The position numbers were made by a program, and so were the translations under genes. DNA of 64,000 bases from Dehalococcoidia bacterium (GTDB lineage: Bacteria > Chloroflexota > Dehalococcoidia > Bin125): positions 31,764 to 95,763 of the forward strand of contig CBDBNA010000010.1 of assembly GCA_965207695.1 (NCBI GenBank), in the 5' to 3' direction. Shown in pieces: positions 4,914 to 57,292 of the stretch. Position 1 is the first letter of the stretch, and each line of letters opens with the position of its first letter. The notes beneath the pieces are model-generated. The model did not search any database. It was not told the origin of the DNA and was given only the letters and a program-made list of their open reading frames with translations.

Positions 4914-5665
4914 TCAGGGCCAGCGGGCGCGGGCGATCTCATCCTCCAGGTGCAGCGGCTCCAGGCCGAGCGGGGCCAGCAACGGCGACGGCGCGCCCAG
5001 ACGCCAGGCCGGCATCGCGCGGGGGAAGTCGGCCGCCGTGGGCTCCTGCCGGCCCAGGACGAGCATCGGGATGGCCGGCAGGCGCTCCTGGAGGAAGCGC
5101 AGGTTCTCGGCCTCGACGACCGCGGGGGCGAGCGCCGGAGAGGAGGCGTAGCCGCTGACGACGATCAGCGCCACGTCGAGGCCCCGCCGCTCCGCCGCCT
5201 CGACGCTCAGCAGCGTGTGGTTGAGCGTGCCCAGCGCCGGCCGCACGACCAGCACCAGCGGAGCCGGCATTGATGCCGCCAGATCGGCCATGTCGGTTTC
5301 GTCGGTGATCGTGACGAGCAGCCCGCCGGCGCCCTCGACGAACGTCACGTCGTGCGCCTCTCCGATCGCGCGGCAGTCGCGCAGCGCCTCCTCGACCGAG
5401 AGCGTGACGCCCGCCCGACGCGCCGCGATCGACGGGGCGAGCGGCTCGGGCAGGGTCGACAGCGTGCGCAGCGTGGCCGCATCGCCCAGGGCCGCGCGGT
5501 ACATGGCCTCGTCGCCCTCGCGGGCAGGGTCGGTGGCGCCGGTCTGGAACGGCTTGACGAGCGCCACGCGCCGCCCGGCCCGTTGCAGCGCCCAGCCCAG
5601 CCAGGCCGTCGCGACGGTCTTGCCGGCGTCGGTGTCGGTGCCGGTGACGAAGTACAGCTCGCCGC

Positions 5666-5669
<4 letters not shown>
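4914..5669 (-). CDS. bioD: dethiobiotin synthetase
   Basis: FVTGTDTDAGKTV P-loop typical of BioD. GTG 5669 overlaps the bioF stop (GTGA). Confidence 0.9.
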
Positions 5670-6844
<1,175 letters not shown>

Positions 6845-31245: not shown

Positions 31246-31303
31246 CCCCCGGTCGGGGCGGACGGAGCGCCGCCGTCGGCGCGACTCTCACGTTAAGCGA
31301 GTC

Positions 31304-31849
31304 CTAGAGCCGCTCGGCAGTCCGTCGAGTCTCTGCTTCAAAGTCAAGGCCCAGGTAGGGCTGTGAGCGACGGGGTCGACGCTCGGCTGCCCGCATCAGT
31401 TCCCTCACGTCTGCTTCCCACCCTCGTCGGCCCGGGCGCACATGAATGTGGCGGACATTGCCCCACTCGGTCATCGCCACATGGCCGCGGTGCGTAACGA
31501 AAGTCGTCAGGCACCCCGAGCCATAAAGGAGTTCGGCTCTGTCTGGCCAAACGTCCATCGCGATCCGAGCGGCCTCCTGCTCGGCCAAGTGTGAGGCCAC
31601 TCGTTCGATGACCGCCTTCTTGATCGGTGAAAGCTCGTCACTGGCGCCCTGCGAGTTGGCCGAGAGAGACTCGACTGCAGCTTTGAGTGCCGAAAGGCGC
31701 GCGTCCAGAACGTCCGCCTTTGCGTCGATCGCACGATCGGTCTCTGCAATCCCGTCGTCATCAAGCACGACCTTCGGCCGACGCAATCCCAGCGATAGGA
31801 GAGCCGCAGCAGCGACCACGACGGTTACCGCGATCCACAAGACTTCCAC
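31304..31849 (-). CDS. hypothetical membrane-anchored coiled-coil protein (island gene C)
   Basis: GTG 31849 lies 1 nt after the upstream TGA. N-terminal helix VLWIAVTVVVAAAALLSLGL, then a charged helical segment and a ~90-aa tail. No family recognised. Lower GC. Confidence 0.55.
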   Translation of the reverse strand: MEVLWIAVTVVVAAAALLSLGLRRPKVVLDDDGIAETDRAIDAKADVLDARLSALKAAVESLSANSQGASDELSPIKKAVIERVASHLAEQEAARIAMDVWPDRAELLYGSGCLTTFVTHRGHVAMTEWGNVRHIHVRPGRRGWEADVRELMRAAERRPRRSQPYLGLDFEAETRRTAERL

Positions 31850-31850
31850 A

Positions 31851-32114
31851 TCAGGCCTCTTGTCTTGGTGACTCGCTCAGGTTCTTGACCACCTGTTGGA
31901 GTTCGTCGATTTGGTCGAGAAGTCTATCGTACCTTCTGTCGAGCGAACGGCGCTGTTCCTTCAACTCAGCGATCAACGCGAGGTTAGCTCGCTCGGTCGG
32001 GTTTCCCCGGTGGCGCAAGATCCGGTCGAGGATGATCCACGACACGGCGAAGAACCCCAGGACGCCGCCAGCATCGCTGAAGCCGAATCTCCCCGTCTCG
32101 GCTAGAACTTCCAC
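31851..32114 (-). CDS. hypothetical small membrane/coiled-coil protein (island gene B)
   Basis: GTG 32114 shares 1 nt with the upstream TAG. GGVLGFFAVSWIILDRIL helix, then heptad-like ELKEQRRSLDRRYDRLLDQIDELQQVVKNL. No family recognised. Confidence 0.5.
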   Translation of the reverse strand: MEVLAETGRFGFSDAGGVLGFFAVSWIILDRILRHRGNPTERANLALIAELKEQRRSLDRRYDRLLDQIDELQQVVKNLSESPRQEA

Positions 32115-32767
32115 TACTCGATCCAGCGTTCAGAGTTGAAGGCAGCGCGAAGGAGCTCAAGTTCCTCGCGCGCGCGCCCAATGACGTCGGCAATCGCCTG
32201 AAGCTCCTGAGAGTTGAACTCGAGGGTAAGAGAATCAGGGCTCCCATCATCAGTGACATAGTCGATCTGAAGCTGTCCCATCGCGTGCTGGGCAACAACG
32301 GTGTCCGCGCTTGTAATCACAGGTCGAACGTTCCACTGGATGCGCATGTCCATGAACCCGGCGCCGATCGCACTCTTCGCAGTCTCCTCAGCGATCGCGA
32401 CCTCATCTGCCTCCGTCGGACTGAAGAACTCGAGAAGCGCGGCGATTCGAGAATCGAGTGCCTCTGAGTCGACGTTGAGCCGCTCCGCATGCTCGCGAAG
32501 TTCACCCACGACTTCTTCGTCAGTGACTCGCCTGGCCAACCGCCGGAGGAAGAGGAACGATGCGACAGTTGCAGCGTCCGACACTTCGTCAACCGTGACG
32601 CCGGATGATTCCGCGAGGTCTTCCCACTCAGACTCGGGAACACTCCGAAGCTCCGACCGGTTGCGTGCTGTGAATGCCGCGAGAACATCCGGTGGCGCTT
32701 CAAGAAAGCACTTCAGGTCATCTAGGAACGGGCGATTGCTGCCAAGTCGCGGACCAACTAGGGACAT
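32114..32767 (-). CDS. hypothetical acidic soluble protein (island gene A)
   Basis: Track ORF 32114..32821 (GTG) trimmed to ATG 32767, 10 nt after GGGAGA. 217 aa. No family recognised. Lower GC. Confidence 0.55.
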   Translation of the reverse strand: MSLVGPRLGSNRPFLDDLKCFLEAPPDVLAAFTARNRSELRSVPESEWEDLAESSGVTVDEVSDAATVASFLFLRRLARRVTDEEVVGELREHAERLNVDSEALDSRIAALLEFFSPTEADEVAIAEETAKSAIGAGFMDMRIQWNVRPVITSADTVVAQHAMGQLQIDYVTDDGSPDSLTLEFNSQELQAIADVIGRAREELELLRAAFNSERWIE

Positions 32768-32847
32768 CTTCGGAGTCTCCCGTGCGCTGACTGGTGCTCC
32801 TGGATTCCGCCGCGCAACCACAAGCGCGAGACTTGAGGCATGGTATC

Positions 32848-33501
32848 TTACACCAGCCCGGCCAGGGCGCGGCAGATCGACCGCATCAGTTCCACCTCGG
32901 CCGCGGCGATCTCCTCCCGGCCGCCGAAGAAGACCGACGCCCGCAGCAGCGACGCCTCGCCGTCGCCGCCGAACACGGCCGTCGCGACCTCGAGCACCAG
33001 CGTCTTCGGATCCTGCAGCAGCTCCAGGATGGGGTCGCGCAGCAGCCGCATCGCGTTGAGCGCGTCCGCCGCCGCGACGGCCTGCGGCGCGGCGACGTCC
33101 GACTCGTCCATCGTCGCTTGCCAGTGGAAGGCGTGGGCGCGCCCCAGCCCGCCGAATTCGCGCTGCGCGACGACCTTGCCCGGCAGCCCCCAGCCCGCCG
33201 CGATCGACCCCGGCCGCCCCTCGCGCCGCACGAGGAAGTGGAAGCCCACCGCCGCCGAGCGCACGAAGTGGCCGTCGCCGCCGCCCTCCGAGGTGACGCG
33301 CACGAAGTCGGGCGGGCCACCCTCGCCGACCCGCACGAGGCCGCGGTCGGCGACGTGGGCCCGCAGCCCGGCGGCCCGCTCGGGCGCGTCCCCGGCGACG
33401 ACTTCCGCCGCCAGACCGGCCCCGGCCAGCGGCGCGAGCAGCCCCTCGGCCAGCGAGGACCGCGCCGGGGCCGCGCGCTGGAAGAGCCGGCGCAGGATCA
33501 T
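32848..33501 (-). CDS. hypothetical protein downstream of serS
   Basis: ATG 33501, 25 nt after the serS stop. High-GC3 codon usage like its neighbours. 217 aa. No family recognised. Confidence 0.6.
   Translation of the reverse strand: MILRRLFQRAAPARSSLAEGLLAPLAGAGLAAEVVAGDAPERAAGLRAHVADRGLVRVGEGGPPDFVRVTSEGGGDGHFVRSAAVGFHFLVRREGRPGSIAAGWGLPGKVVAQREFGGLGRAHAFHWQATMDESDVAAPQAVAAADALNAMRLLRDPILELLQDPKTLVLEVATAVFGGDGEASLLRASVFFGGREEIAAAEVELMRSICRALAGLV

Positions 33502-35301: not shown

Positions 35302-35305
<4 letters not shown>
34826..35305 (-). CDS. NUDIX hydrolase
   Basis: Nudix box [26 protein letters not shown] 35305 overlaps the upstream stop (ATGA). Confidence 0.85.
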
Positions 35306-36417
<1,112 letters not shown>

Positions 36418-36420
36418 CCC

Positions 36421-36450
36421 TTGACGAACGGATGTGCTAACCGCTATTGT
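36421..36450 (+). promoter_or_regulatory. sigma70-like promoter TTGACG-18 nt-TATTGT
   Basis: Hexamers read directly. The same architecture and downstream box recur at 44808-44836. Confidence 0.5.
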
Positions 36451-36456
36451 CCAGTC

Positions 36457-36665
36457 ATGGCACGCATATCGCGTGTCACAGCAACCCGCCGTCCCGCCCG
36501 CGCGAGCCGACGGGGCCCATGAAAGATCGTGAAAGATCGTGAAAGATCAGGCAAGTTCGTGCAGCTTCCTGCGCCCCAATGCGCCCCCATGCGCCCCCAT
36601 GCACGCCCGTGACCCCACTTGACCGCCCCTGACCTGCCAGGAACCCCAATGACCATGGGGTTTTC
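36457..36665 (+). ncRNA. candidate structured leader or sRNA (copy 1) with C-rich 10-nt periodic body
   Basis: Promoter upstream. Conserved box 36463-36490. Hairpin AACCCCA/TGGGGTT 36642-36662 followed by TTCC. Paralog at 44843-45012. No known RNA family recognised. Confidence 0.35.
36520..36659 (+). repeat. 14 head-to-tail 10-nt units phased on TG(A/C)
   Basis: TGAAAGATCG TGAAAGATCG TGAAAGATCA GGCAAGTTCG TGCAGCTTCC TGCGCCCCAA TGCGCCCCCA TGCGCCCCCA TGCACGCCCG TGACCCCACT TGACCGCCCC TGACCTGCCA GGAACCCCAA TGACCATGGG. Confidence 0.85.
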
Positions 36666-36716
36666 CTCATCGACCGCTCCTCCCGACGCACGGGAGAAAA
36701 AAATCGAGGCCTACAC

Positions 36717-37517
36717 ATGACCACTCTCACCCCCAACCAAACCCCGAATCCCGACCCGAATCCCGAGCCGCAGCCCACGCCCATCGCCGAGCGCGTGTCC
36801 GCCAACCGCTGGCGCGACTCGGCCCGTATCCGGGAGCGCCTCATGAAGGTCGCCGGCCTGCGCCAGCGCGGCCTCAGCCAGACGGCCATCGCCAACCGGC
36901 TCGGCGTCTCCGAAGCCACCGTCTCGCGCGACCTGCGGCGCCTGCATCTCCTCTGGCGTCAGGAGCACGCCCACCTCGCCAACGCCGAGCGCCTGCGCTC
37001 CCTCGCCAGCCTCCGCGAGGCCGAGCGCTTCTGCTGGCGGCAGATCGATTCCCACTATGCGGACGGCGATCGGGTTCCGGAATTGAGCGGCGTCATCAGC
37101 AACCTCACGGGCGTCGCGCGCGAGATCCGCATGCTCCTCAAGCACGCCCGGCCCCCCCAGCCCCACGACTACTGGGGCTACGAGGACCCCATGACCCCGC
37201 TGCGCATGCGCGAAGCGCTGGAGGAACGCTACCAGCCGCCGGACAAGGTCGTCCTCGGTCTGCTGCCCTACGAGGACGACCCGCCCGAGGACGACCCCGA
37301 GCTGGCCGACGACCCCGAACTGGCCGTGTACCGCAAGATCAACACCGGCCTGGCGGATTTGGAACTCGCGGTCGACGCCGACGTCGCTCCCGAGGCATTG
37401 GAGCGCCGCTTGAAGGAGATGAGCAGCCATGTCGCACTCCTGCGCCAGTTGCAGGGCGGCGACGGCGGCGGCGCGAGCCGCAACGGGGTCTCCGTCGGTT
37501 TCGAAGACGATGAGTAG
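36717..37517 (+). CDS. HTH-domain protein (sigma70 region 4 / terminase-small-subunit-like HTH plus acidic tail)
   Basis: ATG 36717 after GAGG. GLSQTAIANRLGVSEATVSRDLRRL helix-turn-helix. High GC3. Acidic DDPPEDDPELADDPEL tail. 266 aa. Confidence 0.7.
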   Translation: MTTLTPNQTPNPDPNPEPQPTPIAERVSANRWRDSARIRERLMKVAGLRQRGLSQTAIANRLGVSEATVSRDLRRLHLLWRQEHAHLANAERLRSLASLREAERFCWRQIDSHYADGDRVPELSGVISNLTGVAREIRMLLKHARPPQPHDYWGYEDPMTPLRMREALEERYQPPDKVVLGLLPYEDDPPEDDPELADDPELAVYRKINTGLADLELAVDADVAPEALERRLKEMSSHVALLRQLQGGDGGGASRNGVSVGFEDDE

Positions 37518-44156: not shown

Positions 44157-44750
44157 ATCGACCTCCTGGAACTGATCGATCGCCTGGAAGAGACCGTCCT
44201 CAGCGGCCGCGCCGCCCGCTTCGGCGGCGGCTGGATCGTGAACCGCGACGTGCTGCTCGACGTCGTCGACCGCATGCGCGCCGCCGTCCCGCGGGAGGTC
44301 GAGGAGGCCCGCGCGATCCTGCGCGAGCGGCAGACCGTGCTCAACAAGGCCGACGAGGAAGCGCTCATCATCACGAACCGGGCCCGCGACGAGGCCGAGC
44401 ACCGGCTCAACGCGCACGACCTCGTGATCGAGGCGCAGCGCCGCGCCGCCGACGTCATGGAGAAGGCCGCCACCGAGGCCCGCGACCTGCGCGCCGCCGC
44501 CCGCGGCGACGCCGCCGGCATCCGCTCCGACGCCACCACCCAGGCCGTCGAGCAGGCGCTGGAAGCCGACCGCTACTCGCTCGACATGCTGCGCCGCCTG
44601 GAGGCGCAACTGACGTCGATCGAGTCCAGCGTGCGCGCCGGCATCGATCAGCTCGACCAGAAGATCCAACGCGAGGAAGAGATCGCGGGCGCCGACGCCC
44701 GCGACGCCCGCATCATCGCCGAGCGCGAGCGCGAACGCGGCCGCGCCTGA
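44157..44750 (+). CDS. coiled-coil protein (V-ATPase subunit H/G-like annotation class), apparent non-canonical start
   Basis: Reading frame of track ORF 43371..44750. No ATG/GTG/TTG lies between the coaD stop and the conserved-looking N-terminus. ATC 44157 sits 8 nt after GGAG and would give MDLLELIDRLEE. Confidence 0.55.
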   Translation: MDLLELIDRLEETVLSGRAARFGGGWIVNRDVLLDVVDRMRAAVPREVEEARAILRERQTVLNKADEEALIITNRARDEAEHRLNAHDLVIEAQRRAADVMEKAATEARDLRAAARGDAAGIRSDATTQAVEQALEADRYSLDMLRRLEAQLTSIESSVRAGIDQLDQKIQREEEIAGADARDARIIAERERERGRA

Positions 44751-44807
44751 CCGCCCCGCCTCCCTCCAGGGCCTGTTCGCATGGCACGGGAGCTCCGGCG
44801 GGACGGC

Positions 44808-44836
44808 TTGACTCCCCTCATACGATCCGCTAAATT
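44808..44836 (+). promoter_or_regulatory. sigma70-like promoter TTGACT-17 nt-TAAATT
   Basis: Hexamers read directly. Paralog of 36421-36450. Conserved box begins 12 nt after the -10 in both copies. Confidence 0.5.
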
Positions 44837-44842
44837 GAATTC

Positions 44843-45012
44843 AACGACCGCACATCGCGTGTCAGTCAACCCGACCGACGCCCCGCAGACCCGGCTGAGT
44901 GCGTGCAAGCTCGTGACGGATTTCGCTCCCCGATGCTCCCCCATGCGCGCCCATGCCGCCCGATGATTCGCCGTGACCGGTCAAGATCCCGAATGAACCT
45001 GGCGGGTTTCGC
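44843..45012 (+). ncRNA. candidate stand-alone sRNA or protein-binding element (copy 2)
   Basis: Lies between convergent genes, with no downstream CDS. Box 44849-44876. Ten phased 10-nt units. Ends GGGTTTCGCC (copy 1 ends GGGGTTTTCC). Confidence 0.35.
44904..45003 (+). repeat. 10 head-to-tail 10-nt units phased on TG
   Basis: TGCAAGCTCG TGACGGATTT CGCTCCCCGA TGCTCCCCCA TGCGCGCCCA TGCCGCCCGA TGATTCGCCG TGACCGGTCA AGATCCCGAA TGAACCTGGC. Confidence 0.75.
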
Positions 45013-45142
45013 CTCGCCGCCTCCGGCCGGGCGCCCGGCGGACGCGGGAAGAACAAGCACCTTGCGTCTTGGGGCCCAGGATCCCCCTCGGCGCCGGTTT
45101 CCTCGCTCCACGCCGATGCCCCGGCGCCGACGGGGACAGGTC

Positions 45143-47620
45143 CTAGCTCACGACGAAGTTCACCAGCCGGTCGGGCACGTGCACGACCTTGCGCAGCGTC
45201 TTGCCGGCCAGGTGCCGCTGCACGCCGTCCGCGGCGGCGGCCTCCGCCTGCGCGGCCGCCGCGTCGAGCCCGGCGGCCGTCTGCAGCTGGCCCCGCACCT
45301 TGCCGTTCACCTGGACCACCAACGTCACCGTCTCCGACTCGAGCAGGGCCGCGTCGTACGACGGCCAGGACTGGGCGTGCACGGAGTACTCGCGGCCCAG
45401 CTGCTCCCACAGCTCCTCCGCGACGTGGGGGGCGGCCGGCGCCAGGCAGAGCAGCAGCGCCGTCACGGCGTCGTCCCAGGCCGCCCCGTCCACCGGGCCG
45501 CGCTCCGGCTCCTTCGCGAGCGCGTTGGTGAACTCCATCATCGCCGCGAGCATGGTGTTGAAGCGGAACGCCTCGATGTCCTCCGTGACCTTCGCGACCA
45601 TCGCGTGCCGCAGCCGCCCGATACGTTCGGCGCTGTCCGCGTCCGCCGCGCGGTCCGGCTGCAACCGGACCAGCGTCCAGATCCGGTTCAGCCAGCGCGA
45701 GTGCCCCTGGATGCTGGAGTCGTCCCAGTCGCCGCCGCGGTCCCAGGGGCCGAGGAACAGCAGGTACAGGCGCACCGCGTCGGCGCCCAGCTTGGCCACC
45801 CACTCGTCCGGGTTGACGACGTTGCCGCGGCTCTTCGACATCTTCGCGCCGTCTTTGGTGATCGTGCCCTGGTTGAACAGCCGCGTGAACGGCTCATCGA
45901 CCGGCACCAGGCCCATGTCGCGGCAGGCCCGCGTGAAGAAGCGGGCGTAGAGCAGGTGCATCACGGCGTGCTCGGCGCCGCCGGTGTACTGGTCGATGGG
46001 GAGCCACTGCTTCGCCAACTCCGGCGAGATCGGCGCGCTGTCGTTGTGCGGATCGATGTAGCGGAAGAAGTACCACGACGAGCACATGAAGGTGTCCATC
46101 GTGTCCGTCTCGCGGGTGCCCGCTTCGCCGCAGCCCGGACACTCCGCGTTGAGGAAGTCTTCGTTCGTCGCGAGCGGCGACTGGCCCGTGGGCAGGAACT
46201 CCGTCACCTCGGGCAGCAGGACGGGCAGTTGCTCCTCGGGCACCGGCACGGCGCCGCAGGAGGGGCAGTGGATGACCGGGATGGGCGCCCCCCAGTAGCG
46301 CTGCCGGCTGATCAGCCAGTCGCGCAGCCGGTAGTTCACCGACGGCCCGCCCGCTCCCCGCTCCGCGAGCGCCGCCGGGATCGCCTCTTGCGCCTCGGCC
46401 ACCGTGAGCCCGTCGAACGGGCCGGAGTTCACCAGCCGGCCGTCGCCGACGTAGGCCTCCGACAGCGGTGCGCCGTCCCACTCCGGTCCGGCGATGACGA
46501 CCGGGATCTCCAGCCCGTAGTGCTCCGCGAAGGCGAAGTCGCGGTCGTCGTGCGCGGGCACGCCCATGACGGCGCCGTGGCCGTAGCCCAGCAGGACGTA
46601 GTCGGCGATCCAGATGGGGATGCGGGCGCCGGTGAAGGGGTGCAGCGCGTAGGCGCCGGTCGCAACGCCCGTCTTGGGGCGCTCGGTGGACTGCCGCTCG
46701 ATCTCCGACGCGAGGCGCGTGCGCCGGACGTAGTCCTCCACCGCCGCGCGCTGGGCGTCGGTCGTGATCTGCGCCACCAGCGGGTGCTCGGGGGCCAGCG
46801 CCATCGACGTCGTGCCGAAGACCGTATCGGCGCGCGTCGTGAAGACCGTGATCGCGTCGCCGGCCTCGACGGGCGACTCCAGCGGGAAGCGGATCTCCGC
46901 GCCGTCGGAGCGGCCGATCCAGTGGGTCTGCATCGCGCGGATGCGCTCCGGCCACTCGATCTGCGAGAAGTCCAGCAGCTCTTCGGCGTACCGCGTGATG
47001 CGGAAGAACCACTGCTCCAGGTCGCGCATCTCCACGATCGCGTCGCAGCGTTCGCAGTGCCCCACCGCGTCGTCGCCGCGCAGCACCTGTTCGTTCGCGA
47101 GCACCGTCTGGCAGCCCGAGCACCAGTTGGCCGGCGCCATCGCGCGGTAGGCCAGGTCGTGCTTCAGGAGTTGCAGGAACAGCCACTGCGTCCAGCGGTA
47201 GTACTCGGGGTCCGAGGTGATGATCTCCCGCGACCAGTCGAAGCTGGCGCCCATCGTCTTGAGCTGCGCGCGCATCCGATCGACGTTGGCGTAGGTCCAG
47301 CGATGCGGGTGCGTGCCGTCGCGGATGGCGGCGTTCTCGGCCGGCAGCCCGAAGGCGTCGAAGCCGATGGGGAAGAGCACGTTCTTGCCCCGCATGCGCT
47401 GGTAGCGCGCGGCGACGTCGGGCGGGGCGATGGCGAACCAGTGCCCGATGTGCAGGTCCCCGCTGGTGTAGGGGAACATGGTCAGCAGGTAGTAGGGCTC
47501 GCGCGGGTCCGCGTCGGGCGTCTCGTAGAGGCGATCCGCCGCCCAGCGCGTCTGCCACTTCGGCTCGATCGCGGCGGGGTCGTAGCGGTCCGGCGTCGCC
47601 GCCGGCGTCGAACTCGTCAT
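45143..47620 (-). CDS. leuS: leucyl-tRNA synthetase
   Basis: 825 aa. HIGH (GDLHIGHW) and KMSKS (GAKMSKSRGN) motifs. ATG 47620. Confidence 0.95.
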   Translation of the reverse strand: MTSSTPAATPDRYDPAAIEPKWQTRWAADRLYETPDADPREPYYLLTMFPYTSGDLHIGHWFAIAPPDVAARYQRMRGKNVLFPIGFDAFGLPAENAAIRDGTHPHRWTYANVDRMRAQLKTMGASFDWSREIITSDPEYYRWTQWLFLQLLKHDLAYRAMAPANWCSGCQTVLANEQVLRGDDAVGHCERCDAIVEMRDLEQWFFRITRYAEELLDFSQIEWPERIRAMQTHWIGRSDGAEIRFPLESPVEAGDAITVFTTRADTVFGTTSMALAPEHPLVAQITTDAQRAAVEDYVRRTRLASEIERQSTERPKTGVATGAYALHPFTGARIPIWIADYVLLGYGHGAVMGVPAHDDRDFAFAEHYGLEIPVVIAGPEWDGAPLSEAYVGDGRLVNSGPFDGLTVAEAQEAIPAALAERGAGGPSVNYRLRDWLISRQRYWGAPIPVIHCPSCGAVPVPEEQLPVLLPEVTEFLPTGQSPLATNEDFLNAECPGCGEAGTRETDTMDTFMCSSWYFFRYIDPHNDSAPISPELAKQWLPIDQYTGGAEHAVMHLLYARFFTRACRDMGLVPVDEPFTRLFNQGTITKDGAKMSKSRGNVVNPDEWVAKLGADAVRLYLLFLGPWDRGGDWDDSSIQGHSRWLNRIWTLVRLQPDRAADADSAERIGRLRHAMVAKVTEDIEAFRFNTMLAAMMEFTNALAKEPERGPVDGAAWDDAVTALLLCLAPAAPHVAEELWEQLGREYSVHAQSWPSYDAALLESETVTLVVQVNGKVRGQLQTAAGLDAAAAQAEAAAADGVQRHLAGKTLRKVVHVPDRLVNFVVS

Positions 47621-57215: not shown

Positions 57216-57292
57216 GTGGTGGAGCTGGGGGGACTCGAACCCCCGGCCTTCTGACTGCCAGTCAGACGCTCTCCCAACTGAGCTACAGCCCC
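57216..57292 (-). tRNA. tRNA-Ala (anticodon GGC), CCA encoded
   Basis: Minus-strand read GGGGCTGTAGCTCAGTTGGGAGAGCGTCTGACTGGCAGTCAGAAGGCCGGGGGTTCGAGTCCCCCCAGCTCCACCA. Folds as a cloverleaf with G3:U70 and anticodon loop CTGGCAG. Confidence 0.95.

Follow-up and report, generated by a model that had tools for sequence, protein, structure and literature searches.

The phased 10-nt array that lies between convergent genes near 45 kb of the window (the whole 64,000-nt stretch of DNA that was analysed) probably forms part of a MITE-like element that has captured the 5' region of an HTH gene, and the array itself, a ladder of TG dinucleotides, would most likely act as a phased array in double-stranded DNA. 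What is said below about the function of the ladder and of the element is inferred throughout.

The insertion beside leuS and its sister copies

The copy of the array examined here (copy 2) occupies the gap between a plus-strand gene that ends at 44750 and leuS, which is encoded on the minus strand, has its stop codon at 45143-45145, and was identified by Pfam as the gene for leucyl-tRNA synthetase. The following features were placed in this gap.

44766-44769, no strand: left target-site copy, now CCAG (a decayed CTAG); homology with the related locus L001 ends at 44764
about 44769-44782, plus strand: left terminal inverted repeat GGCCTGTTCGCAT, decayed, matching GGCCTGTTCACA of the sister copies L010 and L011
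44808-44836, plus strand: sigma-70-type promoter TTGACT-17-TAAATT, with a conserved CCGC before the -10
44849-44864, plus strand: box CGCACATCGCGTGTCA, an imperfect palindrome just 3' of the predicted start site
44904-45003, plus strand: ten 10-nt units, 8 of which begin TG, with the consensus T-G-M-n-n-n-n-Y-C-R
44988-45009, plus strand: closing hairpin CCCG...CGGG and then TTT, a weak counterpart of the CCCCA...TGGGG-TTTT of other copies
45026-45040, plus strand: GC-rich palindrome GCCGGGCGCCCGGCG, followed by a decayed A-run at 45047-45057; the sisters have a GC hairpin and A7-8
45060-45087, plus strand: remnant of the ribosome-binding and start region of the HTH gene (CTTGCGTCTTGGGGCCCAGGATCCCCC), which aligns to AATCTTGCA...GAGGCC...(A/G)TGACC of the gene-linked copies
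45082-45136, no strand: right-end hairpin with 16-nt arms, 94% complementary, and a 23-nt loop, just 3' of leuS (minus strand)
45130-45142, minus strand: right terminal inverted repeat, decayed, reverse complement GACCTGTCCCCGT
45143-45146, no strand: right target-site copy CTAG, of which 45143-45145 is the TAG stop codon of leuS

The preliminary description, which covered 44808-45012, had reported a promoter, a box and a 10-nt array repeating those of a locus near 36.4 kb (copy 1), and each of these components was recovered. The promoter at 44808-44836 was the sole promoter-like match in 44600-45300, where shuffles lead to an expectation of 0.0, and its counterpart at copy 1 is TTGACG-18-TATTGT (36421-36450). 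The copy-2 box starts 12 nt past the -10, as had been said, and the sequence shared by the two boxes, CGCAYATCGCGTGTCA, is found without mismatch at just two places in the 64 kb, 36463 and 44849, the copy-1 box being CGCATATCGCGTGTCA (36463-36478). The proposed phasing was also supported, since 8 of the 11 TG dinucleotides of copy 2 fall in one phase, which was reached by 0 of 5000 dinucleotide-preserving shuffles; the lag-10 autocorrelation was 0.47 vs 0.27 +/- 0.04 (z = 4.7), and copy 1 gave z = 10.2. The units correspond one for one between the copies and the ends match, as described, and the statement that no CDS lies downstream of copy 2 was correct, the next feature being the leuS stop codon. 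The similarity continues beyond 44808-45012 on both sides: an nhmmer profile of the sister copies had only two matches in the window, one at 44765-45146 (E = 6e-93) and a weaker one at 36423-36711 (E = 1e-42).

The limits of copy 2 were set by comparison with L001, which is collinear with the window at 88-93% identity. Local alignments carried the homology up to 44764 and resumed it from 45143, with flanks about 95% identical around the insertion site, and where the window has an insertion of 378 bp (44765-45142), the syntenic site in L001 has one base.

To find sister copies, the promoter and box common to both loci were combined into one search pattern, TTGAC-N14/15-CCGCTA-N16-CGCNNATCGCG, with which species-representative genomes were scanned. 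The census returned 14 loci, three of them chance matches (L004, L006, L014), and all the real matches were in MAGs labelled Dehalococcoidia or Chloroflexota; the same pattern gave chance matches only or none in JGI metagenomes and IMG/VR. The window's own sequence is present in sponge metagenomes, and the family is restricted to a handful of genomes from uncultured Chloroflexota associated with sponges. Copies upstream of an HTH gene were designated class A, and those like copy 2, with no gene attached, class B. In each of two related genomes, one gene-linked copy was accompanied by at least three of class B, in support of the earlier proposal of an element present at least twice. Class-B copies resemble one another over about 420 nt, are only about 70-75% alike, and share derived features absent from gene-linked copies, and they stand among genes that are related neither to each other nor to those of the window. 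Six of the seven lie between convergent gene ends, and at several of these convergent sites the neighbour's TAG stop falls within the flanking CTAG. The source runs contained at least two further element fragments, one of which shares the left flank of L010.

The ends were best preserved in two of the sister copies. Those of L010 (CTAGAGCCTGTTCACA / TGTGAACAGGCCCTAG) are 16 nt long and 94% complementary, the end arms of L011 are 18 nt long and 94% complementary, and both copies have the layout CTAG-GGCCTGTTCACA ... TGTGAACAGGC-CTAG. Inverted repeats are partial in L012 and L013 and no terminal inverted repeats were found in L008/L016; clean repeats are present in only 2 of the 7 class-B copies. 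At the left target-site position, where the window copy has CCAG, L010, L011 and L013 read CTAG, and CTAG flanks were recorded for L010 (both sides), L012, L013 and the right side of the window copy. By comparison with the empty site, the window is longer by an amount that fits an element plus 4 bp; a 4-bp CTAG and a 2-bp TA duplication are indistinguishable here. Class-B elements measure about 373-420 bp, and no ORF is conserved among the copies. Neither the rest of the window nor the loci used for comparison contained a match to the element ends, nothing homologous to them was found in the DNA around the gene-linked copy, and matches of the HTH gene to IS630 and IS21 N-termini were far below cut-off. 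The preference for a CTAG target is, at most, consistent with a derivative of the IS5 or IS630 family.

Since the L001 site is empty, the ends are inverted repeats flanked by CTAG, and copies stand at unrelated loci, we have filed 44770-45142 as a putative MITE-like, non-autonomous element of about 373 bp. It would have inserted into a CTAG overlapping the leuS stop codon, and duplication of the target would have regenerated the stop. The discrete insertion, the inverted-repeat ends and the CTAG flanks, together with conservation of TG above the other unit positions, are not those of a neutral segmental duplicate, in agreement with the preliminary description. Its proposal of a self-contained functional element held in part: copy 2 is self-contained and has no CDS downstream, but the mobile element within which it sits had gone unrecognised. 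The hairpin at 45082-45136, which is partly the right end of the element, could also act as a 3' stem-loop of the leuS mRNA.

The HTH gene and its leader

The features of the gene-linked copy and of the HTH gene that follows it are listed below.

36421-36716, plus strand: gene-linked (class A) copy, with promoter 36421-36450, box 36463-36478 and array 36520-36659
36642-36664, plus strand: hairpin of the class A copy, followed by T4
36680-36696, plus strand: invariant hairpin CTCCCGACGCACGGGAG in the class A leader
36717-37517, plus strand: HTH gene, 266 aa, the 5' region of which is the putative source of the element's cargo

Sequence comparison showed homology between the interior of the element and the 5' part of the HTH gene, from the promoter through the leader and the ribosome-binding region to the first ~20 codons. 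Class-A copies matched the class-B profile over positions ~46-406 of 428, a span that takes in the -35, the leader and the start of the CDS and leaves out the element ends, and in L001 the profile extended ~80 nt into the HTH CDS. In class-B copies the ribosome-binding and start region reads AATCTTGCA...GAGGCC...(A/G)TGACC, after which the right end of the element takes over. The promoter architecture TTGAC-N14/15-CCGCTA was found in all family members, and promoter, box and 10-nt array precede the HTH homologues examined, apart from L005, in which the array is absent. The earlier opinion that copy 2 does not look like a gene-specific leader was not supported, as its interior derives from the leader of the HTH gene at 36717, which is conserved across the homologues examined.

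The HTH gene has conserved neighbours with housekeeping roles, in the order serS-NUDIX-HTH-lysS-greA in the window and in L001, and in the order HTH-MazG-Lit-rpoD-dnaG in more distant relatives. The simplest history would be a single capture of the 5' region of the HTH gene between transposon ends, followed by spread; its direction (capture from a host gene, and not an HTH gene once carried on the element) is inferred from synteny and parsimony only. The cargo would consist of the host gene's promoter, its leader of about 250 nt and the first ~20 codons, with no transposase remains, and one progenitor carrying this cargo would have spread to several loci, mostly between convergent genes. A leader peptide was considered and rejected, because the ATG near the start site, which begins a short frame in some copies, is missing in copy 2 of the window and in L002, and is followed immediately by a stop in L003.

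The HTH protein had only 12 close homologues in a large protein collection. Its AlphaFold model (mean pLDDT 68) comprises a three-helix HTH, a long helical hairpin and a disordered acidic tail. Searches against Pfam, PHROGs and NCBIfam gave only generic HTH matches below cut-off, a PDB sequence search gave nothing, and with Foldseek the model had no counterpart in PDB or BFVD at E below 0.01. Remote homologues match phrog_645, the label of which, "Rnase E", we distrust. A small-terminase-like HTH protein was rejected as an identification, there being no significant match and the gene sitting among housekeeping genes.

Several further observations were made at the HTH loci. A hairpin that lies 20-35 nt ahead of the HTH start codon, (C)TCCCG-ACGCA-CGGGA(G), is near-invariant in L001-L003, L005 and L023-L027, and the mobile copies carry a different GC hairpin in its place. 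The C-terminal half of the HTH gene and the leader are only 43-85% identical to L001, whereas the adjoining lysS is 90-100% identical, which marks gene and leader as a local divergence hotspot. Directly upstream of copy 1, on the minus strand (35302-36417), lies a gene whose product contains a long (Pro-Glu)n repeat, specified by 28 tandem units of 6 nt (tandem repeat 35959-36126); this gene is absent at the syntenic site of L001, which has about 185 nt instead. A window-specific segment of about 1.6 kb (31281-32858) also breaks the collinearity with L001. Upstream of the gene-linked leader, a repeat GTCCATCCTGAGCCTGTCGAAG...GGGGTGAGGT is present in 1-2 copies at L024 (780-990), L025 (830-940) and L027 (780-990), and L025 has a reverse-transcriptase gene near the leader locus. 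The more distantly related HTH locus L020 has a TATACT -10-like hexamer followed by a perfect 14-bp palindrome, GGAACATATGTTCC (5640-5680), which stands in the position of the box and has ATAT at its centre, as the box does.

Conservation of the TG ladder and its possible roles

Nearly all TG-to-TG gaps are 10 in the leaders of HTH homologues whose proteins are as little as 41-49% identical, while the unit sequences themselves vary among these leaders (e.g., TGAAAGATCG, TGCACACTCG, TGACCCCNNN). Across six independent class-B copies, the T and G positions of the unit are 0.87 and 1.00 identical, vs 0.57-0.80 for the others. Gains and losses of whole units are frequent. In a related strain from another sponge metagenome (run X4), the element occupies the same site but is longer by a single 10-nt unit, GCGCGCCGGC, inserted after 44944, and the orthologous mobile copies L008 (6064-6130) and L016 (2408-2500) differ by four TGAAAGATCG units within flanks that are 92-99% identical, genomes so close that the pair is silent on selection. 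Slippage by whole units keeps the phase mechanically, and phase taken by itself is therefore weak evidence of selection. L001, L011 and L008/L016 show phase shifts of 1-2 nt; in the last pair a 9-nt unit is followed by an 11-nt unit and the phase is restored. L005 retains promoter and box with no array, indicating that the array is dispensable in some lineages. In L023 about eight 11-nt units (TGGACCCCGGG-like, 430-560) stand directly upstream of the -35 of the homologous promoter, the last of them running into the TTGACG hexamer, with a related unit TGGACCCC/TGCACTCC. On this pattern of conservation, the TG ladder is an old, constrained cis-element of the HTH leader.

The reading of the ladder that we prefer, close to the protein-loading DNA site suggested in the preliminary description, is that of a putative phased binding platform for the HTH protein. 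The preference for a DNA platform was based on the architecture, on a domain of the oligomerisation type, and on the array of L023, which lies outside the transcript. The ladder would act as double-stranded DNA, a helically phased array on which an oligomerising HTH protein would polymerise beside its own promoter, so regulating itself. The mobile copies would be additional promoter-plus-operator modules that titrate the HTH protein or place neighbouring DNA under its control; their internal promoter would, at copy 2, probably yield a short non-coding transcript towards the 3' end of leuS, and this transcript would stop or be blocked within the element. A role at the DNA level is favoured by a transcript that is not more structured than shuffles. 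Against it stand a strict period of 10.0 nt over 100-140 bp, which is shorter than the B-DNA repeat, and the composition of the gene-linked array, C-rich and G-poor on the transcribed strand. The 10.0-nt period and the C-richness would fit a role at the level of transcription at least as well.

In such a role, consensus pauses placed every 10 nt would slow the polymerase and favour termination, by Rho or at the closing hairpin, before the HTH gene is reached; we consider a pause ladder or Rho-type attenuator of this kind, although it is the main alternative, rather unlikely. The consensus pause acts on RNA polymerases from bacteria to mammals and has upstream and downstream fork-junction elements (PMC6336406), and the formula of the elemental pause is G-10Y-1G+1 (PMC6062546). 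Each TG of the ladder would supply Y-1/G+1 of one site, and its G would be G-10 of the next. The sequence pattern G-10/Y-1/G+1 is present at every in-phase TG pair, and the period is exactly 10 nt, the distance from G-10 to G+1, in all transcribed arrays, so that a double role of every ladder G would explain the strict integer period; the C-rich class A leader, with C/G ratios of 1.1-2.3 in its arrays and modest structure, also fits. In addition, the unit junction Y-C-R-T-G resembles the CGTG end of ops-type pauses, and in every case the array is preceded by the promoter and followed by a hairpin with T3-5. In the mobile copies, such a ladder would stop the element's promoter from reading into the neighbours. 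However, the related array of L023, upstream of the -35 and with its 11-nt period, cannot pause that transcript, class-B arrays are not C-rich (C/G 0.9-1.25), position -11 is T and not G, and distant homologues have lost the T-run that follows the hairpin. Moreover, the pause consensus comes from the polymerases of other organisms and may not be that of Chloroflexota. That the ladder is an undescribed cis-device, acting either as an HTH filament platform or as a pause ladder, which a transposon captured together with the promoter and spread, is possible, and we advance it only tentatively.

The preliminary description had suggested a stand-alone sRNA as one form that the element might take. 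An RNA of roughly 170-200 nt would then present a phased UG array with a trans-acting function, such as that of a sponge that takes up an RNA-binding protein. A promoter with an AT-rich -10 is retained in 7 of 7 class-B copies in a 73% G+C genome, and TG is conserved in copies with no gene to regulate. The closing hairpin (4-5 bp and T3-5) is conserved in close copies, its stem changing from CCCC/GGGG to CCCG/CGGG in copy 2 of the window and in L026; it fails the criteria of the terminator scan, however, and no other terminator passes. Nor did the transcript behave as a structured RNA. In copy 2 its fold was no better than that of shuffles (z = +0.8), with z from -1.6 to +0.4 in class B and from -3.2 to +0.4 in the whole family. 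Covariation between the copies, which had been named as a check on the element, did not exceed shuffles in the 5' hairpin of the box despite an exchange of CA/TG to CC/GG seen by eye, in a count for which the box core was fixed by the census search pattern. At the gathering score, Rfam found only a tRNA in the whole window (57220-57292, minus strand), and at E up to 10 nothing relevant in 44700-45200, the best score being 22.7 bits vs a gathering score of 45. In the sequencing runs searched, the locus was in no identifiable RNA run. On balance, an sRNA appears unlikely.

The remaining alternative is that copy 2 is a neutral relic, a decaying duplicate or dead transposon whose similarity reflects ancestry and whose phase has been kept by slippage of whole units. 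Copy 2 does show decay, in its inverted repeats, in the loss of TGAAAGATCG units and in its weakened hairpin and A-run, and both the unit-sized indels between strains and close genomes and the 1-2-nt phase breaks of some copies could be read in the same way. But in six independent copies, which resemble one another at no more than about 70-75%, TG stands clearly above the other unit positions in conservation, the promoter hexamers and the box are intact in all six, and the ladder persists through the deep divergence of the gene-linked copies. We consider a relic very unlikely.

Comparison with known systems

Considered as a MITE, the element belongs to a known kind, varied; new biology may lie in the conserved ladder. 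The exact 10-nt spacing of TG has been kept across HTH homologues that are less than half identical and in mobile copies that have no gene, and no described RNA family or operator type to which the ladder was matched accounts for it. If the interpretation is right, a bacterial MITE with the promoter and leader of a regulator as its interior would be a clear case of regulatory sequence mobilised and multiplied. On the more tentative reading of the ladder as an undescribed cis-device, it would also be a bacterial counterpart of Pack-type elements, one that reshapes the set of sites available to a regulator. To our knowledge, such mobilised regulatory sequence, although much discussed for eukaryotes, has rarely been documented in bacteria.

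Bacterial MITEs include the Correia elements of Neisseria, RUP, ERIC and Nezha, and promoter-carrying examples are known. Like these, the element at leuS is non-coding and under 0.5 kb, has inverted repeats and a short, TA-containing target duplication, exists in many copies that are mostly intergenic and near gene ends, and may carry a promoter and hairpins that affect neighbouring transcripts. Unlike them, it has an interior made up of a host gene's promoter, leader and codons, and not a collapsed transposase gene or a bare hairpin; its copy number is low, its copies are old (about 70-75% alike), and no parent IS was identified. IS5-group and IS630 elements use a CTAG target and, in the ISfinder descriptions, duplicate either 4 bp (CTAG) or 2 bp (TA). 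Insertion at CTAG, CTAG on both sides and ends that start with GG are shared with these families, but no transposase gene is linked to the element ends. The plant Pack-MULEs likewise have inverted-repeat ends around a captured fragment of a host gene that was then multiplied; here, in contrast, the host is bacterial and the captured piece is regulatory (promoter and leader), not exonic.

For the ladder, we know of no conserved tandem ladder of 8-20 pause sites, and known pauses are single sites. What the ladder has in common with elemental and ops pauses is TG with a G exactly 10 nt upstream and the CGTG junction (PMC6336406, PMC6062546). Under the preferred reading as a binding platform, the closest parallels would be with iteron and centromere arrays. 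These include ParR-parC of R1 and pSK41, the omega repressor heptads of pSM19035, and TubR-tubC, which combine cooperative binding with autoregulation. The ladder resembles them in its contiguous short direct repeats of about one helical turn and in its position next to the promoter of a gene for a small, putatively oligomerising DNA-binding protein, with binding predicted in the present case. It differs in that its units are heterogeneous, keeping only TG and Y-C-R, and in that the array is transcribed and has no partition NTPase nearby.
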